Source: a virus
Reading direction: 5' to 3' (one strand)
DNA length: 64,000 nt
IMG/VR virus record: IMGVR_UViG_3300032213_002091
Span: 25,041 to 89,040 of that record
Below, piece after piece: positions 2,519 to 64,000 of the stretch (positions within the stretch are counted from its first letter, which is position 1; each line of letters starts with the position of its first letter). Both the position numbers and the translations under genes were made by a program. The notes under the pieces are model-generated. The model was not told where the DNA came from. It worked only from the letters and a program-made list of their open reading frames with translations, and made no database searches.

Positions 2519-2526
2519 GGGTAAAA
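2519..2526 (+). promoter_or_regulatory. GGGTAAAA box (putative late promoter)
   Basis: Intergenic, 30 nt before ATG 2549. Confidence 0.75.
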
Positions 2527-9469: not shown

Positions 9470-9922
9470 TTAACCTGCTGCACTAAAGTCCCTGAAGTAA
9501 AGACCAAGTTTGAGAGAGGGCTTAAACTGAAACCGTTTTAGAAGTTTGTCCGAGATTTTACCATTCTTTCGGAGAACAGCCACCCCTTTTACGCAAGGCC
9601 GATTCAAATCACGCAAAAGTTTGAAGGTTCTTTCTAGAATTTTAGGTCTATCCCCGTGGTTCGGTAGAATAAAGACCCCTAAATAGTAGTATTTGCCCTT
9701 CAGGTACGGGGAGTATCTGGCATCCCCTGTAACCGTTCCGACAACTGTATTGGTGGGATTGTGTAAAATCGCCATTACGACTTTGTTAACCCGTACTTTC
9801 GCAAGATTGAGGCTGTAAACTTTGTTGTTCACCCATAACTCTACAGCTTGAGTTTGGACAACCGCAGATTTCAGGCCGTCGCCGAAGAGTAAGCTGTATT
9901 CGGTAGTTTGATCTTCAGTCAC
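9470..9922 (-). CDS. Hypothetical protein (possible GNAT-like fold)
   Basis: 150-aa ORF co-oriented with the desaturase; weak YYLGVFILP similarity only. Confidence 0.5.
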   Translation of the reverse strand: MTEDQTTEYSLLFGDGLKSAVVQTQAVELWVNNKVYSLNLAKVRVNKVVMAILHNPTNTVVGTVTGDARYSPYLKGKYYYLGVFILPNHGDRPKILERTFKLLRDLNRPCVKGVAVLRKNGKISDKLLKRFQFKPSLKLGLYFRDFSAAG

Positions 9923-9953: not shown

Positions 9954-9961
9954 TTTTACCC
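9954..9961 (-). promoter_or_regulatory. GGGTAAAA box on the minus strand
   Basis: TTTTACCC on the + strand, 39 nt before the minus-strand start at 9922. Confidence 0.75.
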
Positions 9962-9985: not shown

Positions 9986-9993
9986 GGGTAAAA
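9986..9993 (+). promoter_or_regulatory. GGGTAAAA box
   Basis: 35 nt before ATG 10021; divergent from the 9954 box. Confidence 0.75.
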
Positions 9994-13270: not shown

Positions 13271-13278
13271 GGGTAAAA
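13271..13278 (+). promoter_or_regulatory. GGGTAAAA box
   Basis: 31 nt before ATG 13302. Confidence 0.75.
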
Positions 13279-14026: not shown

Positions 14027-14034
14027 GGGTAAAA
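14027..14034 (+). promoter_or_regulatory. GGGTAAAA box
   Basis: 35 nt before ATG 14062. Confidence 0.75.
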
Positions 14035-14717: not shown

Positions 14718-14725
14718 GGGTAAAA
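14718..14725 (+). promoter_or_regulatory. GGGTAAAA box
   Basis: 33 nt before ATG 14751. Confidence 0.75.
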
Positions 14726-17104: not shown

Positions 17105-17112
17105 GGGTAAAA
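17105..17112 (+). promoter_or_regulatory. GGGTAAAA box
   Basis: 33 nt before ATG 17138. Confidence 0.75.
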
Positions 17113-19620: not shown

Positions 19621-19781
19621 TGGGCAAGCACGACGAACAGTATATCGCTCTGATGTCACGTTACAAGGAGCGCAGACAAGAGCTGGGCGAAAGAGCGGAT
19701 CTCTACCTTGAGGCGGCAATGAAGCTTCGAGAGAAGGGAGAAGTGAGCGAAGACGCGATTATCGGCGGGGCCTACCTGTAG
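19620..19781 (+). CDS. 53-aa protein translationally coupled to the kinase gene (not in the ORF track)
   Basis: TGATG overlap; MGKHDEQYIALMSRYKERRQELGERADLYLEAAMKL...GAYL. Confidence 0.7.
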   Translation: MGKHDEQYIALMSRYKERRQELGERADLYLEAAMKLREKGEVSEDAIIGGAYL

Positions 19782-19788
19782 GGTAAAA
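19781..19788 (+). promoter_or_regulatory. GGGTAAAA box
   Basis: 49 nt before ATG 19830. Confidence 0.7.
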
Positions 19789-23651: not shown

Positions 23652-23659
23652 GGGTAAAA
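23652..23659 (+). promoter_or_regulatory. GGGTAAAA box
   Basis: 35 nt before ATG 23687. Confidence 0.75.
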
Positions 23660-24075: not shown

Positions 24076-24083
24076 GGGTAAAA
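24076..24083 (+). promoter_or_regulatory. GGGTAAAA box
   Basis: 59 nt before ATG 24135. Confidence 0.7.
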
Positions 24084-28921: not shown

Positions 28922-29524
28922 ATGAAAAACCCACTTATTCAGGTTGTTCCAACCCTGAGCAAAGAAGAGTTGCGCGTTGTCAATCAATTTTGCGACCGCA
29001 AAGAGAATTTACGCTTAAAGAACACTGTTTTCTCAGGTGAAAGTTTTCGAGTGGACACTTCTCTTCGCTCGAGTGAAGGATTCACTCTGGTGGAAGAAAC
29101 TGCGATCACCGACTTAGTCGGGAAAGCTATAAATACTGCTCTGCTTGAATACCGAGACCGCCTCGGGGGAATCCACCCTTCGCTCGTCAGCTATACTCTC
29201 GCCCCTGGCGCTGCAGGAACTCGATCTCACCGCGAAGGCATTCAAATTCTTGAGTACGGGCCTGGTCAGGAATACAAATTCCATTACGATCAGAATTGGG
29301 ACCGGGCGCAGAACACTTTTTATCGAACGATTTCTGTTGTTCTTTACCTCACCTCTGACTTTGAAGGTGGCGGAACCGAATTCATCGACGAAGTCTATAA
29401 ACCGAAACCGGGCCACGCACTGATCTTCCCTTCGAGTTGGTGTTTTCCTCACCGAGGCCAAGTTGTAACATCCGGACTCAAAAGAGTCGCTGTTACATGG
29501 TACTACGTCTACCCGGCTTCGTAA
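28922..29524 (+). CDS. 2OG-Fe(II) oxygenase (prolyl-4-hydroxylase-like)
   Basis: YKFHYD, RTISVVLYL, FEGGGTEF, LIFPS...FPH...VTSGLKRVAVTW. Confidence 0.9.
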   Translation: MKNPLIQVVPTLSKEELRVVNQFCDRKENLRLKNTVFSGESFRVDTSLRSSEGFTLVEETAITDLVGKAINTALLEYRDRLGGIHPSLVSYTLAPGAAGTRSHREGIQILEYGPGQEYKFHYDQNWDRAQNTFYRTISVVLYLTSDFEGGGTEFIDEVYKPKPGHALIFPSSWCFPHRGQVVTSGLKRVAVTWYYVYPAS

Positions 29525-29527
29525 ATG

Positions 29528-29535
29528 GGGTAAAA
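29528..29535 (+). promoter_or_regulatory. GGGTAAAA box
   Basis: 76 nt before ATG 29604; the leader contains a GAAGTTG/CAACTTC hairpin. Confidence 0.65.
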
Positions 29536-29603
29536 TTGCCTCAGTTGAACTGGAGAAGTTGGCTCGCCTCAACTTCACGGGCTGTTATCGCTAAAGAATC
29601 ACA

Positions 29604-30719
29604 ATGGCAATTAGTAAAGTTGAACTCTTAGATGACACCGGCGTAGTAGCTGGAAGTTACACTACCTCCAACATCACAATCAGTTCGGACGGTAGAATCA
29701 CCAGCGCCACGAACGGTTCCCCAGCCGCCACAGGTGTCACTCCCGGAACGTACACGAATCCGTCATTTACGGTTGGCGCAGATGGTAGGCTCACAGCTGC
29801 TTCAACCTTGGGGTCGATCGATCTTCCTGGCGTAAGTGCCGGGGATGGGGACATTTTGAGTGCTGGCGGCTTCGACGGCATGGTGGGATTGTACAACACT
29901 AACACCTCAGCAGCAAACAGAAATATCAACTTCAACCTGAATAACAACTCAGGTGCTAATTCCTCTTATCTTGTCGTCGGGCGAGACGCGGGTACAGGAT
30001 CTTTTCTTACGGATGTCTTGACGAATTTCCGGGCCGCCCAAGGAGCTTTCACTATAACAAACGGAGACGGTTTTACAATTTGGGGGGATAAAGGCGATGT
30101 CTTGGTTAACGGCGGTATAGACGGAACGTGGGGCATGTTCCTTCAGTCCAATGCCGCTGACCGAAATATGGGGTTTTATACTTATAACGATTTTGGCAAT
30201 ATTTTTCCTATTTTGACTTTAGGCCGGGACCCAAACACCGGACGATATTACGCGGCAGTTAATAGTGCAGCGCCGTCCGGAGGTTCTGATTTGTTCGTCA
30301 ACGCTGGCAACCTCAACGTAAACGGCGTAAAGAATTTCCGAATCAATCACCCCTTGGACGAGAATAAGTACCTCGTTCACACATCGGTTGAGGCACCGCG
30401 AGCCGACCTGATTTACAGGGGGACGGTTCAGCTGGTGGCTGGAACTGCCGCAATCACGCTCGACGAGGAATACGGCTTGATTCCTGGCACTTGGGAGGAA
30501 CTCTGCAGAAATCCGCAAGTTTGGGTCACAAGCGTCGATGGCTGGGAACTTTGCAAGGGTTCGGTCGTTGACGGAGTCTTAACCATTCAAGCGAAAGATC
30601 CCGCATGCGTTGAAACTGTCAGTTGGTTGGTAGTTGCCGAGCGCCAAGACGAAGTTATGTACACCTACGGGCACGACGAAGACGGTCGCCCGCTTCTTGA
30701 GCCAGACAAAAGTATTTGA
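29604..30719 (+). CDS. Tail fibre, paralog of 36212
   Basis: GVxxGxYT...TVxxDGRLTAA repeats; C-terminal KNFRINHP...LVHTSVEAP..DLIYRG. Confidence 0.75.
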   Translation: MAISKVELLDDTGVVAGSYTTSNITISSDGRITSATNGSPAATGVTPGTYTNPSFTVGADGRLTAASTLGSIDLPGVSAGDGDILSAGGFDGMVGLYNTNTSAANRNINFNLNNNSGANSSYLVVGRDAGTGSFLTDVLTNFRAAQGAFTITNGDGFTIWGDKGDVLVNGGIDGTWGMFLQSNAADRNMGFYTYNDFGNIFPILTLGRDPNTGRYYAAVNSAAPSGGSDLFVNAGNLNVNGVKNFRINHPLDENKYLVHTSVEAPRADLIYRGTVQLVAGTAAITLDEEYGLIPGTWEELCRNPQVWVTSVDGWELCKGSVVDGVLTIQAKDPACVETVSWLVVAERQDEVMYTYGHDEDGRPLLEPDKSI

Positions 30720-30730
30720 TTGACCCGAGA

Positions 30731-30738
30731 GGGTAAAA
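30731..30738 (+). promoter_or_regulatory. GGGTAAAA box
   Basis: 51 nt before ATG 30782. Confidence 0.7.
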
Positions 30739-30781
30739 CCGTATATCAGACCCACTCTTAGACCCTTGTTCTGTTCAGATT

Positions 30782-31813
30782 ATGGCCGTAACAAAACAAA
30801 TTTACTCGCTGACAGTTGGCTTCAGCCAGACCGACGTCATTGATCAACTGGAGCAAGCCCTCATTGACGCGGGTTTGATGACGGGTTGGCACGACTCTTT
30901 TACGTCCGGAGCCCGCGCATACGGTGTGTTTGAGTGCGTTTACGATCCCACGAAAACGTTTGGAACCACCTACTACTTGTTCACTATTGAGCAACAGCGA
31001 ATCGGTGTTTCAATCGGAACGGGTTGGGATACCGCTACGAACACCTTTACAGGGACACAGTACCTGGACTACTTTCTTCAGCCCCCGGATATTCAGGTTT
31101 ATGGGAACTACGGTGCCACAGCCATCGGTCAGCCGGGTGTTGAAACGTACAGTAACACCACTACCTTTAACATTTATCGCTACACATCCACGGTCAACAG
31201 CAATCAGAGTTGGTTCGTATTTCAGCAAGGTTTCAACATAAGTTACCCCTTCACCTTCCACAACCCTGCGGAGACCCTTTACCCTTGGTTGGATCTGGAT
31301 CTAGGCATGATTCCGGGCCTTTACGCAACTATCTGCGGTGTAAATTACAACGCAGGTGCCACAAGTTTCTGCCTCCAGTCGAACATTCGTCGTGCCTACC
31401 CGTACGGGCAGGTCTTAACGGGCTACTCAAACTACTACGGCAATGATACTTTCAACGGTCTTAAGACTCCATCCTACACCTACTACGGCTGCGGTAAAAC
31501 GAACAATGCTGCGACCTACAACTTTCCCCCAGGGGGCGCCAAAATCGTTATTCCGGTAGGGTCGCCCGACGCGAACCCCGCTTACTCTCAAAATTACGTT
31601 CCGATCTGCTCCGATCTACCTTGGACCCCGTTCTCTTCTTCTCCCTTGGCGACGGATTTCGGTGTCTACATGCATTACGCGAACAACACTCTGAACTTTG
31701 AAGATCGGTTCGTCGTTGACCCTGGCGTTGAAGAGTGGGAAATTCTGTACTGTGTGAATAATCCTACGGTCACAACCGGTGCGAGTTCGACATTCCTGGC
31801 TCGCGTGGTCTGA
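30782..31813 (+). CDS. Structural protein, tail region
   Basis: 343 aa, aromatic/Thr-rich. Confidence 0.65.
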   Translation: MAVTKQIYSLTVGFSQTDVIDQLEQALIDAGLMTGWHDSFTSGARAYGVFECVYDPTKTFGTTYYLFTIEQQRIGVSIGTGWDTATNTFTGTQYLDYFLQPPDIQVYGNYGATAIGQPGVETYSNTTTFNIYRYTSTVNSNQSWFVFQQGFNISYPFTFHNPAETLYPWLDLDLGMIPGLYATICGVNYNAGATSFCLQSNIRRAYPYGQVLTGYSNYYGNDTFNGLKTPSYTYYGCGKTNNAATYNFPPGGAKIVIPVGSPDANPAYSQNYVPICSDLPWTPFSSSPLATDFGVYMHYANNTLNFEDRFVVDPGVEEWEILYCVNNPTVTTGASSTFLARVV

Positions 31814-31815
31814 CG

Positions 31816-32049
31816 ATGGCCACCTTTCCGATTGGCGACGATTTTATTTACGATCTTGTCAACTCCACCTCTTTCACAGAGGTAACTGATGGTAGCCAGC
31901 CGGTTTTATCGCCAAAATTGTTAGTGATTAGTAACAACCGAATCAGCCTCGACTTATTTCCCTCGGAGGATTGCCCAACTCTGCCAAATCAGGGTCAAGT
32001 TTGGCCGCAAGGGTTATTCTTCGGGTCTTACGCTAACCGCGCAAACTAA
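31816..32049 (+). CDS. Short paralog of the 32114 N-terminus
   Basis: Shared MATFPIGDDFIxxLVxSTSFTEVxDGSQ start. Confidence 0.7.
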   Translation: MATFPIGDDFIYDLVNSTSFTEVTDGSQPVLSPKLLVISNNRISLDLFPSEDCPTLPNQGQVWPQGLFFGSYANRAN

Positions 32050-32113
32050 GCCCCCAGTCGTTCCGAGTTGATCTCGTTGATTACTCTAGTCTGTGTTAAA
32101 TTGACGATGTAAG

Positions 32114-33202
32114 ATGGCAACTTTTCCGATTGGCGACGACTTTATCTTCAACCTTGTTAGCTCCACTTCGTTTACAGAGGTGAGTGATGGCAGCCAAGGG
32201 GAATTGTTGCCAAGGTATTGGTCTGCCCAAGGGTTACTTGATCTACTTCCGGGCTTCACGTCTTTCACGCCCATACTTAACCAGACGAGCCAAGTGTCCG
32301 TTCGCACTTGGCCCGCTCAAGGTTTACTCAACCTGCTGCCGGGGTTCACGTCTCTGACGCCCCTGGTTAATCAAACAAGTCAGGTGTCGGTTAAAACTTT
32401 CGTTGCGACGAACACACTAAACTTGAATCTGCCAAACGCACCCACTTGCAACTGGCCGACCCTTCCAACTACGGGACAAATCTGGCCGTTAAACAATTAC
32501 TTCTACGAGTACGTGCCAGCTCCCCCTGCACCCACGGACCCAATTCCAGCATTGTCCCCCGTTCTCTGGTATGACTTTGCCGATGAATCGACTGTTACCA
32601 CTTCGGGAACTGCGATCACTTCGGTTACAGACAAGGGCAGCAATGGCTGGACATTATCAGTTGGCGGCACAAGCCCTCAGTATGTAACTGGCATTAATGG
32701 CAATAAGTGTTTAGATTGGGGCGTAAGTCCGTCTCATGCCAACTTCATGTACAACAGCAGCAGCACTTCTACAACAATCGGCGAAGTGTACGTTGTTGTT
32801 GATGCTAGTTTTGGTGGCACTGCAGGTAACTATGCCGGTCTTTTTACCTCATACAACAACGCCTGGTACATGCTGGCATTCTCTTCATCTCTTGATGAGT
32901 CGGGCACAGGTTTCAATCAGCTATTTGTCAATGGTGGCACCAGCAACAGGTTCTCAGGGGGATTGTTTACCTCGCCTTCGATCGACAACCCTGCGATCAT
33001 GCGTATCAACAACTCATCTGGCACCGCATTCAACACAACCGGTGGCTTTGAAATCGGCAATGATCGCGGAAACTCCAGCCTCAATCGCGGCTGGCCTGGC
33101 TTGATTGGGGAGTACATTGTCTTTCCCTCCGTTCTAAGCCCCACCGACCGCGATTCTGTGCAGGCATGGCTTGCCTCCAAATGGGGCATCACGCTGGTTT
33201 GA
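32114..33202 (+). CDS. Structural protein with a C-terminal lectin/LamG-like domain
   Basis: 30-aa internal duplication; SPVLWYDFADESTVT...VTDKGSNG...IGEYIVF...WLASKWG. Confidence 0.65.
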   Translation: MATFPIGDDFIFNLVSSTSFTEVSDGSQGELLPRYWSAQGLLDLLPGFTSFTPILNQTSQVSVRTWPAQGLLNLLPGFTSLTPLVNQTSQVSVKTFVATNTLNLNLPNAPTCNWPTLPTTGQIWPLNNYFYEYVPAPPAPTDPIPALSPVLWYDFADESTVTTSGTAITSVTDKGSNGWTLSVGGTSPQYVTGINGNKCLDWGVSPSHANFMYNSSSTSTTIGEVYVVVDASFGGTAGNYAGLFTSYNNAWYMLAFSSSLDESGTGFNQLFVNGGTSNRFSGGLFTSPSIDNPAIMRINNSSGTAFNTTGGFEIGNDRGNSSLNRGWPGLIGEYIVFPSVLSPTDRDSVQAWLASKWGITLV

Positions 33203-33208
33203 CCGCAG

Positions 33209-33216
33209 GGGTAAAA
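33209..33216 (+). promoter_or_regulatory. GGGTAAAA box
   Basis: 36 nt before ATG 33245. Confidence 0.75.
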
Positions 33217-33244
33217 CCTCCTATAAAGGGTTTAAGTTTGTTGT

Positions 33245-34021
33245 ATGCCAACTCTAATTTTCCCGTCGCCTGCTTACAACGGACAGATCTACCCTGATCC
33301 CCCCATCGTAGGTGTAGATCAATATCAGTATAACGAGCAATTTGACACTTGGGAGTTGCTTTCAAGCGGACCTGGACCGGTTGGGCCTGTCGGGCCACCG
33401 GGACCGCCAGGACCTTCTGGCACTCCGGGTACTCCCGGAACTTCTGGTTCACCTGGACCTACAGGTTCACCTGGACCTACAGGTTCACCTGGGCCTACAG
33501 GACCAACTGGTACTCCTGGAAATAATGGGACTCCTGGTTCACCGGGTACTCCTGGGACTCCTGGTTCACCTGGGCCTACAGGTTCGCCGGGGCCGGAAGG
33601 ACCTACGGGACCTGTGGGGCCTCCCGGGGGAGGGTCAGAATATACTTTCACGGACTTTACAACAAGCGTACTTCCTGCAGGAGGAGTGCAAGACTTCCAA
33701 CTTGCGTTGGGTGGTTTATTCCACTTGGTGGCAATTTCTTCGGACTTGCCTATGTGGATTCGCGTTTACGGGGACTCAGCATCGAGAGCCGCTGACACAA
33801 GGACATCTCCGGGAGGAACTCCCCCTTTAAGCGGAACCGGTTTCTATGCCGAAGTTGTAACGACCACGGCAGACGAGACAATCGACTTCGCACCCTTGCC
33901 AGCGGTTTATGCAGGGTTTGGCCTAACTTTCTTCAGAGTGGTAAACATGGGAGTCAGCTCTGTGGCTTTCCAGTTGCAGTTCAAAACGGTCGAAGTCGTT
34001 CCTGGCCTCACACCTGGCTGA
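33245..34021 (+). CDS. Collagen-like fibre protein
   Basis: Long uninterrupted Gly-X-Y run (GSPGPT/GTP). Confidence 0.8.
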
Positions 34022-34030
34022 TAAAATCCT

Positions 34031-35467
34031 ATGGCACTCGACAAAGTTCAACTGCTGAATAATACCGGGGTAGCAGCCGGAACATACGTTAACCCGAACC
34101 TCACCGTAACCTCTGACGGCAGAATTTCGAGTATTTCTTCGGATCCTACTCCTGGCCCTGCGGGACCACCTGGTACTCCGGGAACTAACGGGACTCCTGG
34201 TTCACCTGGGCCTACAGGTTCTCCTGGACCTACAGGGCCAACCGGTCCAACCGGGCCAACTGGTACTCCGGGGAATGATGGGACTCCTGGTTCACCGGGG
34301 CCTACAGGTCCAACTGGTACTCCTGGAACTGACGGGACTCCTGGTTCCCCTGGGCCTACGGGTCCAACCGGTGATCCTGGCACCCCTGGAACTGACGGGA
34401 CTCCTGGTTCCCCTGGGCCTACAGGACCAACCGGTGATCCTGGCACCCCTGGAACTGACGGGACTCCTGGTTCCCCTGGGCCTACAGGACCAACCGGTCC
34501 AACTGGGCCTACAGGACCCACAGGTCCCACACCGTTCATCCCCTCCGGATCCCCGGCAAATAAAATTGTCTCCCCGTTAGAAGTTTTAACAGGAACTTAC
34601 TTCTGTAATGATTTCACCCTTAACAGTGGCACAAGCTGCTACATTCGGGACACGGTTTACATCATGGCCCGTGGCAACGTAATTATCGACGGCCTTATAT
34701 CAGGCGACGGATCCACCGCGAATGGTCCTCCCCCGATGAATTATGCCTATTTAGGGAGCCAATGGATTTCAACAGGGGTTGGCCAAGGCGGTCAGTTTGG
34801 AAACTACGGAAACTACAACGGTGCAGGTATTGCCGGAGGGCGGACGTCCATAGGCGGTTTGGCCTCTGACGCGATTGTGAATTTACGCGGTTCAGATGGT
34901 GCCTCAGGGTACATGGCTAATTCGGACACGGTAACCGTTTCTGGTCATTACTCTTCGGGGGGTCTTGCCGGAAAGACCCTCATCATTCGAGCGTTAGGAT
35001 CCATTCTAATTGGTCCCAGTGCTGTAATTAACTGCAATGGGGCCTGGGGACAAAATTGGAACCTTCTATTCCCCTTCCCCGCGACGCTTTTGTACTCAGG
35101 TGCCGGTGGTGGATCAGGGGGCGCAATTATTTTAGACGCTGACGGGGATTGCATCAATAGTGGGAGTCTTGCCGCCACCGGTGGCAACGGAAGCGATGGT
35201 CTAAATGGTACTTATGGTGGTGGTGGTGGTGGTGGTGGTATTATTATCGTTCAGTCGCGTTATGGGACCTCCTCGGTAGGGACTGCGATTGTAAGCGGGG
35301 GACTTGCGGGCAACAGTTCAGGTACTACCTTGGGTTCAGGGGGCGGAGGAGGTTGCGGTGGGTTTGGCGGAAATGGGGGATTCGGGTACGTACCTGGTGA
35401 TCCCACTCCTGTTGCTCCGTATAACGGCCTAGCAGGAGTTGTTCGACAATGGGGTACTCCTTGGTAA
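34031..35467 (+). CDS. Collagen-like tail fibre with a Gly-rich C-terminal domain
   Basis: Anchor MALDKVQLL..., Gly-X-Y run with 63-nt tandem units, (GGT)8 at 35216-35239. Confidence 0.8.
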
Positions 35468-35799
35468 TGACTTTAGACACAAACATGAACTATTCTGTCA
35501 CTGATTGCTACTACGCGGATGTAGACCACAAAACCATAGCTTGCTGGCTAGAGATACCAGATGCTGAAAAAATGTTTCTACTTCTTACGGCGGACGCTCC
35601 CGATTCAACAGCAACTTTTTATGAAAACGCCCTGAACGGAGATTATGGGCCCATCACAAGTTACGCTGACTCTCACTGGTATTGCACACTACACGGGTTT
35701 TACTGGAATAACCAGTACTACGGTTTAGGGGATGTGATGATTTCCCCTTCTGGAGAACAACCTCCCAACGCAACTCAAACACCCCCTCCACGACCCTGA
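35467..35799 (+). CDS. Tail-fibre-associated small protein
   Basis: Coupled to the fibre gene; ALNGDYGPI motif. Confidence 0.6.
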   Translation: MTLDTNMNYSVTDCYYADVDHKTIACWLEIPDAEKMFLLLTADAPDSTATFYENALNGDYGPITSYADSHWYCTLHGFYWNNQYYGLGDVMISPSGEQPPNATQTPPPRP

Positions 35800-35805
35800 G
35801 CTAAA

Positions 35806-36138
35806 ATGTTACAACCCCAAAACCTATTTGTCAGCTGGGACGGAGAGGGCTGGCGTCAGTCCCCCTTTGACTGGAACAACTCTCTGGATGACTCGAAAGA
35901 GTTTATGATCTCCCAGACGAATTCTTTCGCTTACAAAACTCTCTCCCCAAGCGACTGGTACGTTACACGTCAAGTTGAAGCGGCGGTTCCCGTTCCAGCG
36001 GAACTGGGTGCATGGCGGCAGGAAATCCGAGACGCAGCCAGAGTCAAGAGAGAAAGTGTGCTGGAATGCGACACGAAAGAAGAGCTGAACACGTACACCA
36101 AGAGCGAAGAATACCTGTTCTGGCCTGATCAACCCTGA
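35806..36138 (+). CDS. Tail assembly chaperone-like protein
   Basis: LSPSDWYVTRQVE...WRQEIRD...WPDQP. Confidence 0.7.
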   Translation: MLQPQNLFVSWDGEGWRQSPFDWNNSLDDSKEFMISQTNSFAYKTLSPSDWYVTRQVEAAVPVPAELGAWRQEIRDAARVKRESVLECDTKEELNTYTKSEEYLFWPDQP

Positions 36139-36177
36139 TATTTATTTCAAGACTTAAAAATCAAGACTTAACCTTAG

Positions 36178-36185
36178 GGGTAAAA
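36178..36185 (+). promoter_or_regulatory. GGGTAAAA box
   Basis: 34 nt before ATG 36212; preceded by a TCAAGACTTAA direct repeat (36147, 36161). Confidence 0.75.
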
Positions 36186-36211
36186 TACCAAAAAGAAGGT
36201 GTGAAATTTCA

Positions 36212-37627
36212 ATGACACTCGACAAAGTTCAACTCCTGGACGACAGCGGGGTAACCCCTGGAAGTTACACCCTTACCAATCTTACGGTGGGTGCGGATGG
36301 AAGACTCACAGCCGCTTCTAGTGGCTCTCTGAATGCTACAGGTGTGACTCCTGGAAGTTACAATCTTTCCAGCATTACGGTGGGTGCGGATGGGAGACTC
36401 ACAGCCGCTTCCACTCCCACAAGTATTAACTTGCCTTCTATCGCAAACCCCGGTGACGGGGATATCACTAGTGCGGGTGGGTCCGACGGAATATTCACTA
36501 TATCCAACTCGTCTAACGACACACCAATGTTGCTAGGGGCCACAACAGGTGGTGTTATGGGTCCTAAAGTTGTATTAGATCCTCGTCCGAGCAACTGTTA
36601 CACGTGGCCTTTCGTTCTGCCGGGGTCATCCCCTAATGGTTATTTCTATGTCAAAGGTAACTTACTACTTGGAACTCAGTTTGATGACTCGGGGGAACTA
36701 TCCAGCACAGGTGGCAGTGACGGCAATTTCGGCATATTTAATGGAGCGGAAACCCTAGGCGACCCTATCAACACTACCTCAAGGTCTATTTCTTTCTGGA
36801 CAAAAACTTACTCAAATAATAACACGGAGTGCAGATTTACTATTAACCAGTACGGTTCTACATCTCTTCAAAGTTTGGGGTACTTAGGTCAACTTATTGG
36901 TGTAGGTGGTGGTGCTTTAGGGTCCAGCGATATGGTCGTTGATGGTGGCACTGATGGGCAGTTCGTTATTTTCAATAACAGCGGCGCTGCTGCCAGGATG
37001 ATATCCCTTGCCATTAACAACGAATCTTTAAATGGGCCCGACGCATTGCTCCGGTGCTACAGGGATGGTGGTACTGGAGCACGCATTGTAGATTGCCCCC
37101 TCCCTGGAACTACCTTTGATGTGAACGGTACTAAACTGTTCCGAATCGAACATCCTATCGATAGCTCTAAAGACCTCGTTCATGTTTCAATCGAAGGGCC
37201 AAGAGCCGATCTAATTTACCGCGGAAACGTAAAACTCATAAACGGTGGGGCGACCGTCGATTTAGACGAAGAGTATGGGCTGATTCCGGGAACTTGGAAG
37301 TCGCTTTGCAGAAACCCCCAGGTTTGGATTACAAGTGTAGATGGTTGGGAGCCCTGCAAAGGCTCCGTTTCTGACCAAATCCTTACAATATACTCCAAAG
37401 ACTCAAATTCTAAGGAAACAGTTAGCTGGTTGGTGGTGGCGGAACGGAAGGATTCGGCTATGTATGGCCCCTCTAGTGATGAAGAGGGTAGACCGATTCT
37501 TGAACCAAACAGAAGGCCCCCAAACAACCCTCACCCCTACCCGGATTTTCCAAATTCACCAGTTCAACAGACTCAGTCAAACTCTAGTGAGAGTTCTTCA
37601 GAAGACGACGCAGCAAAACTTCCATAA
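36212..37627 (+). CDS. Tail fibre, paralog of 29604
   Basis: Same N-terminal repeats and C-terminal KLFRIEHP...LVHVSIEGPRADLIYRG domain. Confidence 0.75.
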   Translation: MTLDKVQLLDDSGVTPGSYTLTNLTVGADGRLTAASSGSLNATGVTPGSYNLSSITVGADGRLTAASTPTSINLPSIANPGDGDITSAGGSDGIFTISNSSNDTPMLLGATTGGVMGPKVVLDPRPSNCYTWPFVLPGSSPNGYFYVKGNLLLGTQFDDSGELSSTGGSDGNFGIFNGAETLGDPINTTSRSISFWTKTYSNNNTECRFTINQYGSTSLQSLGYLGQLIGVGGGALGSSDMVVDGGTDGQFVIFNNSGAAARMISLAINNESLNGPDALLRCYRDGGTGARIVDCPLPGTTFDVNGTKLFRIEHPIDSSKDLVHVSIEGPRADLIYRGNVKLINGGATVDLDEEYGLIPGTWKSLCRNPQVWITSVDGWEPCKGSVSDQILTIYSKDSNSKETVSWLVVAERKDSAMYGPSSDEEGRPILEPNRRPPNNPHPYPDFPNSPVQQTQSNSSESSSEDDAAKLP

Positions 37628-38368: not shown

Positions 38369-38395
38369 TTTACCCACCACGGCTCTCGCTATAGT
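38369..38395 (+). promoter_or_regulatory. Class-2 promoter TTTACC-N15-TATAGT
   Basis: Directly before GTG 38406. Confidence 0.6.
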
Positions 38396-41776: not shown

Positions 41777-41784
41777 GGGTAAAA
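41777..41784 (+). promoter_or_regulatory. GGGTAAAA box
   Basis: 31 nt before ATG 41808. Confidence 0.75.
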
Positions 41785-43995: not shown

Positions 43996-44003
43996 GGGTA
44001 AAA
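43996..44003 (+). promoter_or_regulatory. GGGTAAAA box
   Basis: 31 nt before ATG 44027. Confidence 0.75.
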
Positions 44004-52598: not shown

Positions 52599-53014
52599 GC
52601 AGCGAATTCTTCAGCAGCAACACCCCCGATACACCAACGCCTCTCAACAGTGCTGGAACGCCAACGCAAAAGTATCAGAACGCTGCTGGAGAGTTCGACC
52701 TGAAGAAATCCCTTGAGCGCAAAATCAAATCGAGAAAAGATCAGGACATTCCGGCTTTCTCTGAGGACGATGCAATTCAACGCTACTACGGGGATTTCTC
52801 GATCGAGTCGAAACGAAATGCGCGAGATCTTCTTCGTACGCACCCGGAGTTCGGGCAAGAAGGAAAGATGCGAATGAACCGTGTGGGCAATAATACCCGC
52901 GAAGTTCTACCTCATGACCCCACCAAGACCGTTGAAAACGGTGGGCACATTGTCTACCAGGATCAACCGCAAACCTCTCAAAAGAAGTACAACAATGGCT
53001 CAAAAGTACACTGA
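52595..53014 (+). CDS. Hypothetical protein
   Basis: 139-aa ORF, ATGA coupling. Confidence 0.65.
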   Translation: MSSEFFSSNTPDTPTPLNSAGTPTQKYQNAAGEFDLKKSLERKIKSRKDQDIPAFSEDDAIQRYYGDFSIESKRNARDLLRTHPEFGQEGKMRMNRVGNNTREVLPHDPTKTVENGGHIVYQDQPQTSQKKYNNGSKVH

Positions 53015-53507
53015 TCCGCAGACATTCCTGAAAAATCTGGTTGTCAAGAAAGGCAAAAGCGACCTTCTAGGTGTGTATCTAACCGGTGTCACCGTTGTAG
53101 CCGACGCTGTGAACGATTACGGTTACGAGTACAGCCAAGAGTGGGTTGCAAAGAACGTTGAAACTCTTCAAAGAAAAGAAGAAGCCAGCTGGAACAAGTT
53201 GCTGGTTGAAACTCGCAAGAACACAGACGATATCGTTCACACTCTTACGTTCAGCCGGTTGGACGAATCGATCACGATGTATTTCATTGTGGAAGGGCAT
53301 GAAATGTCAGCGATGGTTTTCATTCCAACGCTTTTGGTGAACGAGTTCGTATCGGAAATTGCCTTTTACAATCAACTCCTGACTGAAGTGGCAGCTTTCG
53401 CGGGTAAAACACCAACCAGCGTCAAATTTACGTTGGGCGCTGCTTTGATGGACTGGGACGACCTTGTTGAACAAGGGTGCGCTCGCGAGGTGGACGTCGG
53501 CTTCTAG
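52995..53507 (+). CDS. Hypothetical protein
   Basis: ATG 52995 (MAQKYTDP). Confidence 0.65.
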   Translation: MAQKYTDPQTFLKNLVVKKGKSDLLGVYLTGVTVVADAVNDYGYEYSQEWVAKNVETLQRKEEASWNKLLVETRKNTDDIVHTLTFSRLDESITMYFIVEGHEMSAMVFIPTLLVNEFVSEIAFYNQLLTEVAAFAGKTPTSVKFTLGAALMDWDDLVEQGCAREVDVGF

Positions 53508-54828: not shown

Positions 54829-54866
54829 TTTACCCCCTTTGCAAACTGGCCGAAAAGCGGTATACT
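54829..54866 (+). promoter_or_regulatory. Promoter of the first sigma gene (TTTACC, TTGCAA-N16-TATACT)
   Basis: Intergenic, following two small hairpins at 54801-54827. Confidence 0.55.
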
Positions 54867-54886
54867 AATTACAGTTGATGAGAACC

Positions 54887-55477
54887 ATGAGTAACGACCA
54901 AACCTTCTACGACGCTGTCAAGGGCGACGCCCGCGCTGTCACTCAAGTGATTAAACAATACACTCCGCTAGTTCATAAACTGGTGAACAAATACGCCTGG
55001 ATGGCCCCGAAGCACAGCCGAGAGGATCTTGTGCAAGAGGGTTTGCTGGGAATTGTTAAAGCAATCGAAACCTTTGATGCTGACAAAGGTTGCAAGCCGA
55101 TGACCTGGATTTACCCTCAAGTTCGTGGAGCTGTTCAAGGTCTAGCGCGAAAAGAAAACCGAAATCCAAAGTATCCCCTGTCGCTTGAACAGTCGGATTG
55201 GGCGAAGAATCTTGAGGATCCCAATCAGTTTGAAGTTCGCGACGAGATTGCTTCCGCCCGAATTCGTGACATTGTTCTGTCCGGTTGCGGTTCCCTCGAC
55301 AGCAAACGAGCGCAAATTGTTTGTGCCCGTTACGGCCTTCTCGGAGAGAAAGGACTTCGTCAGGGGGAGGTTGCCCAGAAGTTCGGAATGTCGAAGCAAG
55401 CGATCAACTCGCATATCTCACGTTTCACCCGAATTGTGCGCGAAAAGCACCCGGAACTGGAGGCTTTGATTCAGTGA
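54887..55477 (+). CDS. RNA polymerase sigma factor with regions 2 and 4
   Basis: REDLVQEGLLGIVKAIETFD..KG; C-terminal RYGL...LRQGEVAQKFGMSKQAI HTH. Confidence 0.9.
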   Translation: MSNDQTFYDAVKGDARAVTQVIKQYTPLVHKLVNKYAWMAPKHSREDLVQEGLLGIVKAIETFDADKGCKPMTWIYPQVRGAVQGLARKENRNPKYPLSLEQSDWAKNLEDPNQFEVRDEIASARIRDIVLSGCGSLDSKRAQIVCARYGLLGEKGLRQGEVAQKFGMSKQAINSHISRFTRIVREKHPELEALIQ

Positions 55478-57162: not shown

Positions 57163-57290
57163 CTAACAAACAACTGTATACTCTTTGTGGCGTGATTACT
57201 TTGTCTGCAGCGTATATTACGAACAGCACATTTCTGAGTGTGTTTGCGTTTTTGTGGTTCGTTTCTTCACTAGTTAGTAAAAATGACTAA
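57159..57290 (+). CDS. Small membrane protein
   Basis: GTGA coupling; two hydrophobic stretches. Confidence 0.5.
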   Translation: MTNKQLYTLCGVITLSAAYITNSTFLSVFAFLWFVSSLVSKND

Positions 57291-57639
57291 TTCAACCACG
57301 GGTAAAACTTTCATTGTCACGAAGGTCTACGACGAGGACTGCGATGTTTGCAAACACATGAGCAAACATGATCGAGCAGTGTACGAAGGTTTTTCGGAAG
57401 TTGCTTATCAGGAAGTTAACCTGAATGACGTAATCAACCACGACAACGACTTTACGAAACTCCGTTTGTACCAGTGCCTTGAGCGCTATGCGCTTAACAA
57501 CGACTACACGATCGACCTTCCTGTTTACGTGTATTTAACGAAACAGGGGAAGTACGTGGGACACCACATCGGTTCAGCAACTGTTGTCGAACTTCGTGAA
57601 AAAACAAAAGAAATCCTCGAAGACTGTTTACCAGAGTAA
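57283..57639 (+). CDS. Thioredoxin-like protein
   Basis: KVYDEDCDVCKHM and LPVYVY. Confidence 0.7.
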   Translation: MTNSTTGKTFIVTKVYDEDCDVCKHMSKHDRAVYEGFSEVAYQEVNLNDVINHDNDFTKLRLYQCLERYALNNDYTIDLPVYVYLTKQGKYVGHHIGSATVVELREKTKEILEDCLPE

Positions 57640-60447: not shown

Positions 60448-61372
60448 ATTCCCCGAGTTTTTCGAAGCCTACCACAAGGCTCAATCGTCTCAATGGCGCC
60501 CTCAAGAGGCTTCCTTTGAGAGTGACATTCGCGACTGGCAAAACGCAAGCCAGGACGAACGGGAAATCGTGGGTGGTATCCTCCGAGGATTTACCCAACT
60601 TGAGTGCCATGTTAGCGATTACTGGTCAAACATTCCAGCATGGTTCCCCAAACACGAGGTTGCTGCAGTCGCAAGAGCTTTCGCTCTTTCGGAAATTGTT
60701 CATGCTGAGGCGTACAATCTGCTATCCGACACTCTTGGGTTAGATGAGTTTGAAGCATTCCTTGGCGACCCAATCGCCCAACAAAAGATCGGATACTTCC
60801 TTGAAAATCGAGGAGTTAAGGAGTCTCTTGCTGTGTTCAGCGGTGCTGGGGAAGGTGTTTCTCTATTCAGTTCTTTTGCTGTTCTTCTCTCCCTTAACCT
60901 TACTGGGCGTTTCAAGGGAATCGCTCAAATCATTTCTTGGTCGGCTCTTGATGAGCAGCAACATTCAGAAACCGGAATAGCCCTGTTCAACCAGTTGGTG
61001 AAAGAAGAGGGCCTGGGTGAAATCGAGGAATACAACATCGTTCGCGGTTTCGATGAAGTTGTGAAGAACGAGCTGGTTTTTCTGGACAACATCTTCAAAG
61101 GCCGAAAGCTCAGCACCATCGACAAATACGACGTTGAGAACTACCTTTATTACCGCGCAAACGACCGGCTCATGCGTTTGAACATTGGCAAAAGATACAC
61201 CTACGATGAAGCTGCCGCCACGCGAATCAAGGAGTGGTTTCACCCGATCATGGAAGGTGCGACCAGCACAGACTTCTTCGCCCAAGCCAAAGATGGAAGC
61301 AACTATGTTTCCAAACCCACTCAAGATTTCATGGGTGTTAACCTCAAGACGCTAGACCTGAACCTCGTATGA
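60395..61372 (+). CDS. nrdB: Ribonucleotide reductase class I beta subunit
   Basis: FTQLE, EIVHAEAY, EGVSLFSSF, DEQQH, TDFF. Confidence 0.93.
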   Translation: MTSIREYRQPYKVNGKFEFPEFFEAYHKAQSSQWRPQEASFESDIRDWQNASQDEREIVGGILRGFTQLECHVSDYWSNIPAWFPKHEVAAVARAFALSEIVHAEAYNLLSDTLGLDEFEAFLGDPIAQQKIGYFLENRGVKESLAVFSGAGEGVSLFSSFAVLLSLNLTGRFKGIAQIISWSALDEQQHSETGIALFNQLVKEEGLGEIEEYNIVRGFDEVVKNELVFLDNIFKGRKLSTIDKYDVENYLYYRANDRLMRLNIGKRYTYDEAAATRIKEWFHPIMEGATSTDFFAQAKDGSNYVSKPTQDFMGVNLKTLDLNLV

Positions 61373-63297
61373 CCGAACCAATCGCCCCCAAGTGGCTTTC
61401 CAACGAAGGAATGCACACTTTATCCGCAGGCTATTTGCTGCCTGGGGAAACTCCCCGTGCGATGTTTCAACGGGTTTCCCGTGCAGCGTCCGTAATTAAC
61501 GAAGACGAAACCCTTTATGACGACCTTTTTACTTGCCTTTGGAATGGGTGGCTGGGTCTGGCTTCTCCCGTCGCTGCTAATTTTGGGACCTCACGAGCCC
61601 TTCCCATATCTTGCTACTCTGTACACCCTAGCGATTCTGTTAGCAGTATTTACTCACATCTCAAAGAAGTCGCGCAGCTGAGCAAAAACGGTGGCGGTGT
61701 TGGGGTTTATTTTGGCGATGTACGCCCTGCTGGCGCTCCTATTACAGGTGGTGGAAAGTCTACAGGGATAGTTCCCTGGGCGCAGCAGTACGACCTCTGC
61801 GCTCGAGTTGTATCGCAGGGCGGAGTTCGTCGAGGATCATTCGCAATCTACCTCCCGATTGATCACCCCGACGTTCCCGAACTGCTTCGATCTAAGGATC
61901 ACACGAAGGGAGATCCTCGAAAGTTTATCGACTCAAACGTGGCCTTAACAATCACGGATGAGTGGGTTGAATCGATGATCGCCGGTGACAATGAGAAACA
62001 AGAACTCTTCGGAGAAGTTCTGAAGACAAGACTGATCTCTGGTTCTCCCTACTTGGTTTTCATTGACAACGCTAATCGGCAAAACCCGGAGTGCTACACT
62101 GAGCGTGGCCTCTCCGTGAAAACCTCAAATCTTTGCTCAGAAATCTTCCTTCACACCGATGAGTATCATTCGTTCGTCTGCGTCCTCAGCAGCCTCAATC
62201 TTAGTCGGTACGACGAGTTTAGTGATTGGAAATCTCCTACTACTGGACGTACGGTCCCCGAACTCGCGATTCATCTCCTCGATGCAGTCGTTTCGGAATT
62301 CATTCGCAAGGCAAAAGACAAAGTTGGACTCGGTCGCTCCGTTCGCTTCGCTGAGAAAAGCCGGGCACTAGGTCTTGGCACAATGGGCCTTCACACACTG
62401 TACCAGAAACGTGGATTACCTTTCAGCTCGCCTGGCGCTCGTGAACTCAACATCGAAACGCATAAGTGGATTCGAGAGCGAGCTGAAGTTGCCTCACGAG
62501 AACTGGCACAGAAGTTTGGGGAGCCCGAATGGTGCGTGGGGTCCGGTAGACGCCATACTCATCTTATTGCTGTTGCTCCTACTCGGACCAATAGTGTTAT
62601 TAGTGGAGCGTTTAGCCAAGGTATTGAGCCAATCGATTCAAACTATTTTGTTGCGAAACAAGCCAAAGGAACTTACGTTCGAAAGAACCCTGTTCTAGAA
62701 AAGCTTCTTTGTGAACGCGGAGTCAGCGAAGGGATTTGGGAGCAGATTCTGACAGCAAAGGGGAGTGTTCAGGACCTTACCGTTCTGAGTGACGAGGAGA
62801 AAGAAATCTTCAAAACAGCTCGAGAAATTGACCAGTTTGAACTGGTGAAGCAAGCAGCTGATCGTCAACCGTTTATCTGCCAAGGGCAAAGTTTGAATCT
62901 GTTTGTAGACCCGGAATCTGACGCCGCATATATCACTCGCCTTCACCTTTCTGCCTGGAAAATGGGACTGAAATCCCTGTACTACCTAAAGTCAAGTTCT
63001 TTGCTAACGAATAAAAAGGTGGTGCCAGCGCTGGTGGTTACAAAAGAAGGTTGCCCGTGGTGCGTCAAACTGAAAGACGAACTTCAGAAGAGAAACATTG
63101 TTTTCGAGGAAATCTCAAAACAAGAGGCTCAAGATAGAGGATATTGGAACCCTGAATGGCAGACAGTTCCCCAGCTTTGGCTATACAAGAAGCACATTGG
63201 CGGCTATACTGACTTCATGGCTCACACCGAAAAAGCCGAAATTCCTCAAGAAACTGGGACAACAAACTATGCTGAATGCACTTCCTGCGAAGCCTAA
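61369..63297 (+). CDS. nrdA: Ribonucleotide reductase alpha subunit with an embedded glutaredoxin domain
   Basis: PISC, GGGVG, SNLCSEI, VCVLSSLN, APT, KSLYY; then TKEGCPWC...TVPQ...IGGY; terminal CTSCEA. Confidence 0.95.
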   Translation: MTEPIAPKWLSNEGMHTLSAGYLLPGETPRAMFQRVSRAASVINEDETLYDDLFTCLWNGWLGLASPVAANFGTSRALPISCYSVHPSDSVSSIYSHLKEVAQLSKNGGGVGVYFGDVRPAGAPITGGGKSTGIVPWAQQYDLCARVVSQGGVRRGSFAIYLPIDHPDVPELLRSKDHTKGDPRKFIDSNVALTITDEWVESMIAGDNEKQELFGEVLKTRLISGSPYLVFIDNANRQNPECYTERGLSVKTSNLCSEIFLHTDEYHSFVCVLSSLNLSRYDEFSDWKSPTTGRTVPELAIHLLDAVVSEFIRKAKDKVGLGRSVRFAEKSRALGLGTMGLHTLYQKRGLPFSSPGARELNIETHKWIRERAEVASRELAQKFGEPEWCVGSGRRHTHLIAVAPTRTNSVISGAFSQGIEPIDSNYFVAKQAKGTYVRKNPVLEKLLCERGVSEGIWEQILTAKGSVQDLTVLSDEEKEIFKTAREIDQFELVKQAADRQPFICQGQSLNLFVDPESDAAYITRLHLSAWKMGLKSLYYLKSSSLLTNKKVVPALVVTKEGCPWCVKLKDELQKRNIVFEEISKQEAQDRGYWNPEWQTVPQLWLYKKHIGGYTDFMAHTEKAEIPQETGTTNYAECTSCEA

Positions 63298-63298
63298 G

Positions 63299-63976
63299 AT
63301 GACACGTCGTCGCAACAAAAAATACCCAAGACTGACGCCCGAGCAGCAGAAACTTGTGTCGGAACACACTTGGATCGCAGGCAGACTCGCCTACGGCGCA
63401 AAGTGTTTAACGGGGGGTCACACGGGTTCACTTACGCGGGAAGATCTTGAGTCGGTGGCAAAATTCGCGTTGTGCGTTGCCGCAACCCGTTACCGCTCCG
63501 ATATGGATGTTAAGTATAGCACTTACGCATGGAACACTGCTAGGGGTTACATTCAACACGCCCTCCGAGATTACTCTCGCATGGTACGGACACCGCGCTG
63601 GATTGCCAATTATCGAAACAAAGTGTCCGACCTCGTGAAAGAGGGCAAGACCTACAAGGAAATTGCCGATATTTTGGGCCTTGACGAGAGCAGAGTTCTC
63701 AACTGCGAGATGTCCGAGAACAATTACCACGTGTCTTACGATAGCTCGCCCGAGGACTGGAGCACTCCCGAGTTCGTCTACAACTTTGAAGAGCACAAGG
63801 CAACGTTGTTAAGCCCAAACCTCATTCACGAGATCCGCGCTTTGACGGACGCTGAGATGGTGATGCTGCTAAAGTACGTCGAGGGTGAGCCCATGAGTGA
63901 CGAGGAGAAGGAATACGCCGCAGAAAAATTCTTTGAACTTCAGGCGATTGCACATGGACTCCGAGAAGAACTTTGA
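63299..63976 (+). CDS. SigF/SigB-like sigma factor with apparently truncated region 4
   Basis: YSTYAWNTARGYIQHALRD..RMVRTPRW (region 2.3-2.4), TYKEIADILG (region 3); no second HTH seen. Confidence 0.85.
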   Translation: MTRRRNKKYPRLTPEQQKLVSEHTWIAGRLAYGAKCLTGGHTGSLTREDLESVAKFALCVAATRYRSDMDVKYSTYAWNTARGYIQHALRDYSRMVRTPRWIANYRNKVSDLVKEGKTYKEIADILGLDESRVLNCEMSENNYHVSYDSSPEDWSTPEFVYNFEEHKATLLSPNLIHEIRALTDAEMVMLLKYVEGEPMSDEEKEYAAEKFFELQAIAHGLREEL

Positions 63977-64000
63977 GGTTAAGCCGTTTCCCCTTGAGAC

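Follow-up and report, generated by a model that had tools for sequence, protein, structure and literature searches.

What defines a sigma factor is a pair of DNA readers, regions 2 and 4; natural sigma factors without the -35 reader are, to our knowledge, rare. The gp55 protein of bacteriophage T4 is highly diverged and dependent on gp33 and gp45, so that it tells little about how such a loss happens. Sigma-70 is said to initiate at extended -10 promoters without region 4.2 or -35 contact, a case reportedly described by Kumar et al. in J Mol Biol in 1993 for an engineered truncation, in which the junction of regions 2.4 and 3.0 reads the bases just ahead of the -10 hexamer. In this work we analysed a sigma factor gene, P0001 (63299..63976, plus strand), located at the end of a 64,000-nucleotide stretch of viral DNA, hereafter the window, which represents the last 64 kb (positions 25,041 to 89,040) of the 89,040-base IMG/VR contig IMGVR_UViG_3300032213_002091 (CheckV completeness 40%); coordinates given below are those of the window. 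Our findings suggest, with a probability that we put at about 0.6, that P0001 serves an S-CBWM1-like (Aokuangvirus-like) cyanophage as its late sigma factor and that it reads single-box promoters.

The closest deposited relative of P0001, and its orthologue, is gp045 of Synechococcus phage S-CBWM1 (Aokuangvirus; YP_009816510.1), with 56% identity over 98% of the protein, for which the record gives a name only, "RNA polymerase sigma factor". The gene order of S-CBWM1 is the same (sigma 1 ... nrdB, nrdA, sigma 2), as are its GGGTAAAA boxes. A literature search found nothing in print about a missing region 4.2 helix-turn-helix (HTH) or a promoter role of the box, points that the original description of S-CBWM1 might mention. 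For the group-3 sigma factor SigB of Staphylococcus aureus, the account of the open complex describes how the last sigma2 helix and the first sigma3 helix recognise the upstream GGG of the GGGTAT element in double-stranded form, with R110 hydrogen-bonded to G-15, R100 hydrogen-bonded to G-14 and R97 in contact with G-13, and how F79 and F86 make up a pocket that receives the flipped-out A-11 (PMC11156646). The SigF of Synechocystis is described as reading GGTAA at -12 and as also needing a TAGGC -32 region (PMC2532724). For T4, the passages on late transcription report promoters with a -10-like element only and no -35 conservation, recognised by gp55; gp33, an unrelated protein with acidic patches that does not read DNA, clamps the flap tip helix "as sigma R4", and full late activity requires the sliding clamp gp45 (PMC7892883). 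In phages phiEco32 and 7-11, a phage sigma factor is reported together with one short motif before middle and late genes, tAATGTAtA in the former and a TGATGT core in the latter (PMC4331800).

As judged from its sequence, P0001 belongs to the sigma-70 family and carries group-3 (SigB/SigF-type) determinants in regions 2.4 to 3.0. Its best PHROG match is the sigma-factor family phrog_351 (E 1.1e-14), and the best fold match of its structural model is S. aureus SigB in the open complex (8x6g_H, E 5e-6). When a profile of the family (43 sequences) was compared by hhalign with canonical group-3 sigma factors (n=24), the probability was 99.9% and the E-value 6.8e-35, region 2 included. These results, together with the alignment to SigB, bear out the initial annotation, made from the DNA letters, in its description of a sigma factor with a SigB/SigF-type region 2.4 and region-3 helices. 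The scores against individual models are less specific to one subfamily. The NCBIfam models SigBFG and FliA/WhiG tie on P0001 (42 bits each, E about 8e-11), with matches that end at residues 147-153, and the cyanobacterial SigF model lies below both with 36.7 bits. The 42 bits obtained with TIGR02980 (SigB/SigF/SigG), set against a curated cut-off of 234.35, cover profile positions 29-137 of 227. Conversely, when scored with the family profile, cyanobacterial SigA (90.9 bits) and S. aureus SigB (90.3) come out level, ahead of Bacillus SigF (79.7) and FliA (64.2). The 24 nearest canonical relatives, which were picked by eye for an intact HTH, match SigBFG in 24/24 cases and FliA/WhiG in 21/24, and region 2.3 of P0001 (KYSTYAW) resembles group 1 more. 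The likeness to SigF thus appears to hold only in part, and the informative likeness is local, in the residues predicted to read GGG.

These residues could be placed by aligning P0001 with SigB in HMMER, where SigB R110, R100 and R97 correspond to P0001 R100, R90 and H87, and the pocket residues F79 and F86 correspond to M69 and Y76. The two GGG-reading arginines of the SigBFG type (the equivalents of SigB R100 and R110) are therefore present in P0001; in cyanobacterial SigA, A and V occupy the same positions. R100 is the sole invariant column in a 26-sequence alignment of the family, where R90 is shared by at least 90% of the sequences. The surrounding block, FALCVAATRY...KFSTYAW...RGYIQHALRD.SR.VR.PRW, is almost unchanged in relatives whose overall identity ranges from 100% down to 40%.

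The domain layout of P0001 begins with a core-binding and -10-reading region 2 (63335..63592, residues about 13-98), supported by hhalign, the canonical hidden Markov model (HMM) described below and Pfam Sigma70_r2. Its last helix and the start of sigma3, aligned to 8x6g_H, form the segment RGYIQHALRDYSRMVRTPRW (63542..63601, residues 82-101). Region 3 follows with the HTH TYKEIADILGLDESRVL (63596..63712, residues about 100-138), as delimited by the SigBFG and FliA alignments and by Pfam HTH-type matches at 108-133; its helices in the model span residues 100-114, 119-126 and 130-138. An acidic linker takes the place of region 3.2 (63713..63808, residues 139-170) and is modelled with low confidence, the predicted local distance difference test score (pLDDT) being 50-63 for residues 141-170. 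Then comes a region-4.1-like helix pair with the motif L-[ST]-D-x-E...L-x-x-Y (63809..63886, residues 171-196; hhalign and HMM), of which helices 173-180 and 184-195 reach pLDDT 96-97. The protein ends with a single helix in place of the region 4.2 HTH (63893..63952, residues about 199-218). In the full-length AlphaFold model (pLDDT 86.0) a single long helix (201-218) replaces the two of a canonical sigma factor, and the C-terminal domain folded separately gave the same picture, with four helices and pLDDT 85.9.

The absence of a detectable region 4.2 HTH was confirmed across the family at the level of sequence. The initial annotation had noted that the C-terminus starts like region 4.1 and shows no recognisable 4.2 HTH; this description proved right well beyond the single protein, and the structure prediction agrees with it. 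The hhalign alignment of the family with the canonical sigma factors ends at ...KYV-EGEP, that is, within region 4.1. In the alignment of the family with two canonical sigma factors, about 10 columns are absent exactly at the HTH and the 4.1-like motif is kept. An HMM of canonical sigma factors, in which the HTH occupies approximately positions 209-240 of 244, aligned to all 35 family proteins of at least 190 amino acids only to position 213 or less. It reached position 236 or beyond in 24/24 canonical sigma factors, a result given by construction, as the model was built from those same 24 sequences; an independent positive control was provided by a second sigma factor encoded in the window at 54875, whose HTH was detected at positions 185-237. 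In a Pfam scan for regions 2, 3 and 4, region 2 of P0001 was found at residues 45-94 with 17.5 bits, below the cut-off of 24 bits (the same model matches 34/43 family members at E ≤0.01), and the sole region-4-type match, at residues 115-133, was the region-3 HTH, so that no region 4.2 was recovered. Among 102 representative matches of 185-330 amino acids, all 31 that ranked above the first canonical one were without HTH. The terminal helix also differs in charge: its net charge is -4 over 22 residues in P0001, and in 21 relatives the median is -3 (range -6 to +1; negative in 18, zero in 2, +1 in 1), the median of region 4.2 in 24 canonical sigma factors being +3.5 (range 0 to +6). A regex-based measure of tail length and charge had inconsistent anchors, and HMM end points and alignment columns were used instead.

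The C-terminal domain is best read, on the predicted model, as derived from region 4 and shortened. When it was compared with 48,161 chains by VIA-align, 14 of the first 20 rows were sigma region-4 domains (WhiG, AlgU, SigE region 4 on DNA, SigB and others), with about 60 model residues aligned to about 70 chain residues. A separate protein that might supply the missing part was also sought. In the 89-kb contig, the complete S-CBWM1 genome and two relatives (277 kb, 98% complete; 150 kb), six-frame searches with Pfam Sigma70_r4 returned nothing other than the partner sigma factor and the region-3 HTH, and thus no separate region-4 protein, although a non-homologous flap binder would escape them.

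The second line of evidence is the 8-bp box GGGTAAAA. The initial annotation had associated the sigma factor with single-box promoters, and the co-occurrence of P0001-type genes with strand-oriented GGGTAAAA motifs that lack a conserved upstream element is supported by the counts. The window holds 18 copies (17 plus, 1 minus) against 2.33 expected, and none of 100 shuffles had more than 6. The whole 89-kb contig has 24 forward and 1 reverse, and S-CBWM1 has 33 forward and 1 reverse, where a reversed-pattern control gave 4 and 1. Across 57 related loci, which include many near-duplicates, the strand of the sigma gene carries 211 copies and the other strand 0. For distant relatives the counts were taken from whole records, as loci of ±10 kb held too few sites: a 65-kb relative whose sigma factor is 40% identical has 10 forward and 0 reverse, two other records have 4/0 and 4/0, and a control record without the family has 3 forward and 2 reverse. 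Variants of the box with one mismatch are at background in the contig (at most 5 forward versus 2 reverse); S-CBWM1 tolerates a few. Upstream of the box, 151 non-redundant sites, obtained after dropping near-identical upstream regions, revealed no further element: no column upstream of -1 exceeds 0.12 bit, and the most frequent 5-mer between -45 and -17 occurs in 17 of 151 sites, the figure for a control region being 15. An A at the sixth nucleotide past the box is weakly conserved (78/151 sites).

The boxes often lie right after the stop codon of the upstream gene and 22-45 nucleotides before the next start. In S-CBWM1, mapping by eye placed them before the annotated major head, portal, protease, tail sheath, tape-measure, tail-fibre and baseplate-region genes, and none before the polymerase, primase, topoisomerase or ribonucleotide reductase (RNR) genes. 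On the plus strand of the window they are found at 2519..2526, 9986..9993, 13271..13278, 14027..14034, 14718..14725, 17105..17112, 19781..19788, 23652..23659, 24076..24083, 29528..29535, 30731..30738, 33209..33216, 36178..36185, 41777..41784, 43996..44003, 53402..53409 and 57300..57307. Those at 19781 and 24076 precede open reading frames (ORFs) of 1270 and 747 amino acids, respectively, and that at 33209 a further ORF, all three matching tail-fibre families; of the other box-preceded ORFs among the 10 tested in the window, 2 fall into families of unknown function and 5 are without any match. The sole minus-strand copy (9954..9961) lies about 31 nucleotides before a minus-strand ORF (9470-9922). 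Two copies are of uncertain role, one within the last 100 nucleotides of ORF 52881-53507 (53402) and one just past the listed ATG of ORF 57283-57639 (57300); their position inside ORFs may reflect either mis-called starts or internal promoters in the early/middle region.

The second sigma factor in the window is encoded by 200 codons from a TTG (54875..55477, plus strand; Pfam region 2 with 55.9 bits and region 4 with 21.5 bits), and its architecture is complementary to that of P0001. It comprises region 2 and region 4 with the HTH and has no region 3, as the canonical HMM aligns to it only over positions 17-103 and 185-237; at the position of R100 it has L, and an arginine is kept at the R90 equivalent. 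This partner lies 5-9 kb upstream of the P0001-type gene in 35/57 loci; most loci without it had less than about 7 kb of upstream DNA, and one with 10 kb upstream had none. The two complementary architectures may be regarded as a fixed pair. A class of two-box promoter-like sites, GTTTAC-N16-18-TAnnnT, occurs 7 times forward and once in reverse in the contig, and 13/1 in S-CBWM1. In the form GTTTAC(C)-N16-18-TATA(C/G)T it precedes replication and nucleotide-metabolism genes; the sites in the window are at 38370, 49086, 50163, 53508, 58774 and 59754, and a variant, TTGCAA-N16-TATACT (54829-54866), stands before the partner gene itself. A sigma factor with an intact HTH, no region 3 and L at R100 fits such a two-box promoter, as far as sequence features allow a match. 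Therefore, from the complementary architectures and the conserved reading residues, P0001 is probably the one of the two that reads GGGTAAAA.

We hypothesize the following course of events. P0001 would bind the host core RNA polymerase as other sigma factors do, and its shortened C-terminal domain may still grip the beta-flap tip but no longer read DNA. Promoter choice would depend entirely on the strict 8-bp box GGGTAAAA: the last sigma2 and first sigma3 helices (H87, R90, R100) may recognise its GGG in double-stranded form, as SigB does at GGGTAT, the A-rich part that follows would be melted, and the weak A six nucleotides past the box could be at or near the start site. As to timing, nrdB and nrdA directly precede the sigma gene, and no GGGTAAAA box lies between 57300 and its start; P0001 would therefore be expressed with those genes and before the box-driven structural genes. 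In this scheme the sigma factor is made together with the nucleotide-metabolism genes and subsequently turns on the structural genes. A more ambitious form of this hypothesis, which we put forward tentatively and at somewhat under even odds, is that P0001 represents a natural single-chain sigma factor that unites the functions of gp55 and gp33: its region 4 would have turned into an acidic clamp on the flap that does not bind DNA, and promoter choice would reside wholly in an extended -10 box of 16 bits, for which sigma2 and sigma3 together are the readers. It would then be the late switch of a widespread group of cyanophages from fresh and estuarine waters, and a surviving intermediate form between complete sigma factors and the split design of T4.

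Several observations weigh against P0001 as a late sigma factor reading single-box promoters. P0001 falls under every curated Pfam and NCBIfam cut-off. The contact of its C-terminal domain with the flap is purely our inference. The fold evidence for this domain is weak: Foldseek retrieved no PDB structure for it at E ≤0.001 (best 2.8), and all VIA-align Z-scores are ≤5.2, a range that the tool rates as unreliable for helical domains. In some distant members of the family the terminal helix is basic, by the rough regex-based measure, and unspecific DNA contact is therefore possible for the family. Co-occurrence cannot tell which of the two sigma factors reads the box, because both travel together (35/57). 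In the record of locus L052 (G002, 119 kb, 36% G+C), whose sigma factor is 50% identical, the box occurs 3 times forward and twice in reverse, without enrichment. No structural annotation was obtained for 7 of the 10 box-preceded ORFs tested in the window. Finally, lake-water metatranscriptome libraries (6-7% of sampled words) yielded short contigs of relatives, with 90-99% likeness, at 29000-37000, in which starts and ends are unreadable. With regard to G002, its sigma factor has the same reading block, and a variant box or a record that is too fragmentary may explain the absent enrichment.

Among other explanations, the boxes may be real promoters that are read by the partner at 54875 or by a host group-3 sigma factor (SigF), while P0001 does something else, for instance reading the GTTTAC-N16-18-TAnnnT class or occupying the core polymerase and so lowering -35-dependent host transcription. 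The joint conservation of both phage sigma factors, the arginine that the partner keeps at the R90 equivalent and the reading of GGTAA at -12 by cyanobacterial SigF (PMC2532724) all speak for such a division of roles. Nevertheless, SigB reads GGG by sigma2 and sigma3 jointly, and the partner lacks region 3 and has L at R100, its intact HTH being suited to a two-box promoter instead. As for the host factor, Synechocystis SigF also needs the -32 word TAGGC, which is present in 1/151 sites. Moreover, the GGG-reading block of the P0001 family is near-invariant wherever the box is kept, and we consider it rather unlikely that P0001 is not the reader.

Another view is that region 4 is very divergent and not lost, that the terminal helix still contacts upstream DNA, whether in a specific or an unspecific manner, and that a degenerate or variably spaced upstream element exists. 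This would agree with the sigma region-4 domains found as the best structural neighbours of the C-terminal domain, with the basic terminal helices of some distant members (rough as that measure is) and with one HMMER alignment in which the terminal helix was placed gap-free on the first HTH helix of SigA. We regard it as quite improbable, as about 10 residues are absent and several members are shorter still, the charge is negative in 18/21 close relatives, profile alignments stop before the HTH in 35/35 family proteins, and the 151 sites hold no upstream information content or enriched word. It is also conceivable that GGGTAAAA is not a promoter at all and serves as an RNA processing site or as a terminator-associated or translation-related signal at gene boundaries, the targets of the sigma factor being elsewhere. 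The frequent position of the box directly after a stop codon and 22-45 nucleotides ahead of the next start would suit a signal of this kind. A promoter accounts better for the resemblance of the box to the -10 consensus of SigB/SigF sigma factors, for the matching reading residues of a co-encoded sigma factor, for the weak A six nucleotides downstream, and for the sole minus-strand copy of the window, which precedes a minus-strand ORF; a function unrelated to promoters thus seems very unlikely.

The P0001 family is large and apparently restricted to phages. It comprises 870 proteins at E ≤1e-3 in a collection clustered at 90%, and 241 representatives at 50% clustering, 46 of them with E ≤1e-10. 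In IMG/VR, 57 loci were found. Among 185,579 species genomes, a scan with one single peptide pattern found 2 loci, both on contigs of metagenome-assembled genomes. A quick, unrooted maximum-likelihood tree was built from the region 2-3 columns of 84 proteins, after 18 in which only region 2 aligned had been dropped. P0001 belongs to a clade of 34 rows with a Shimodaira-Hasegawa-like approximate likelihood ratio test (SH-aLRT) value of 96, of which 32 are without and 2 with the HTH; within it, a group of 28 rows is wholly HTH-less (support 80). The two HTH-bearing proteins, P0179 and P0224, both metagenomic, sit on a long branch inside this otherwise HTH-less clade (pair support 100) and may be witnesses of the ancestral state. 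Three more HTH-less rows, which may be fragments, are scattered among canonical ones. The tree is compatible with one loss of the HTH inside a phage lineage, as far as region 2-3 sequences reflect its history. The statement that region 4.2 was lost is compatible with this topology and is not proven by it. The further suggestion of the initial annotation, capture of a host SigF-type sigma factor, is not specifically supported: SigBFG and FliA/WhiG score equally, the cyanobacterial SigF model scores lower, SigA scores as high as SigB, and the family, a deep one, came almost exclusively from viral contigs. The tree says nothing about a cyanobacterial donor.

Regarding the gene itself, the ORF check gave exactly the coordinates of the initial annotation, and the strings quoted there were all recovered (RGYIQHALRD at residues 82-91, VRTPRW at 96-101 and IRALTDAEMVMLLKY at 179-193). 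The gene encodes 225 amino acids from an ATG and its TGA ends at 63976. The stop codon of nrdA occupies 63295-63297, and the sigma ATG at 63299 begins one base further. The mechanical ORF list offers a longer form from a TTG at 63098, which overlaps nrdA; conservation in the family alignment starts at M-[TS]-R-R-R. The ORF is complete and not clipped by the contig end, because relatives with 10 kb of downstream DNA terminate at the same place. A megablast search against deposited phages found no nucleotide-level relative of the window DNA.

The neighbouring genes deserve a brief description. The class I RNR large subunit (61369-63297) contains a glutaredoxin domain at residues 556-610 (Pfam Glutaredoxin, E 8.3e-8), which precedes the C-terminal Cys pair; the S-CBWM1 orthologue has an intein instead. 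Downstream, a 72-amino-acid ORF (63954-64000, clipped by the contig end) overlaps the final 23 bases of the sigma gene. It is complete at L006:10656-10874, was found by tblastn in 50 loci, directly after the sigma gene in all except L050, and is unannotated in S-CBWM1 (L002:8665-8853). Its best Pfam match is NblA, a phycobilisome degradation adaptor (E 0.002-0.003, 18.6-18.9 bits, below the cut-off of 25 bits), and on this ground it was rejected as a candidate region-4 substitute or partner of the sigma factor.

That phages use late sigma factors with single-box promoters is already known. The present family differs in a natural, family-wide loss of the -35 reader in a recognisable group-3-type sigma factor that keeps regions 3 and 4.1. 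Since the family is large and related to group 3, keeps regions 3 and 4.1 and goes together with a strict single box, it makes a tractable system. It opens the questions of how much promoter information sigma2 and sigma3 alone can carry, of the role of an HTH-less region 4 at the beta flap, and of the timing of late genes in non-T4 cyanophages. On this reading, GGGTAAAA marks transcription units in hundreds of contigs of uncultured lake cyanophages, and the S-CBWM1 isolate with its host offers a laboratory system for tests.

The comparison with described systems defines the place of P0001. The resemblance to T4 gp55 would be that of a phage sigma-family protein sending the host polymerase to late promoters with a single -10-like element. 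The idea of a convergence on the gp55 design can be kept only as a loose analogy: P0001 retains region 3 and a 4.1-like domain, neither a clamp nor gp33 nor gp55 appears in the S-CBWM1 annotation, which would miss divergent analogues, and none of our searches revealed a sequence relationship of P0001 to gp55. T4 divides the two functions between the region-2-only gp55 and the flap-binding co-activator gp33 and requires the clamp as activator, whereas P0001 holds regions 2, 3 and 4.1 in one chain. With phiEco32 and 7-11 it shares the pairing of a single motif with a phage sigma factor, but motif and hosts differ. The group-3 sigma factors read the same type of -10 box as GGGTAAAA (GGGTAT for SigB, GGTAA for SigF), and the GGG-reading arginines are kept in P0001. 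However, S. aureus SigB and Synechocystis SigF have an intact region 4.2 and need a -35 or -32 element, and P0001 has neither of them. Sigma-70 at extended -10 promoters offers a parallel in an engineered truncation, whereas in P0001 the loss is natural and family-wide.

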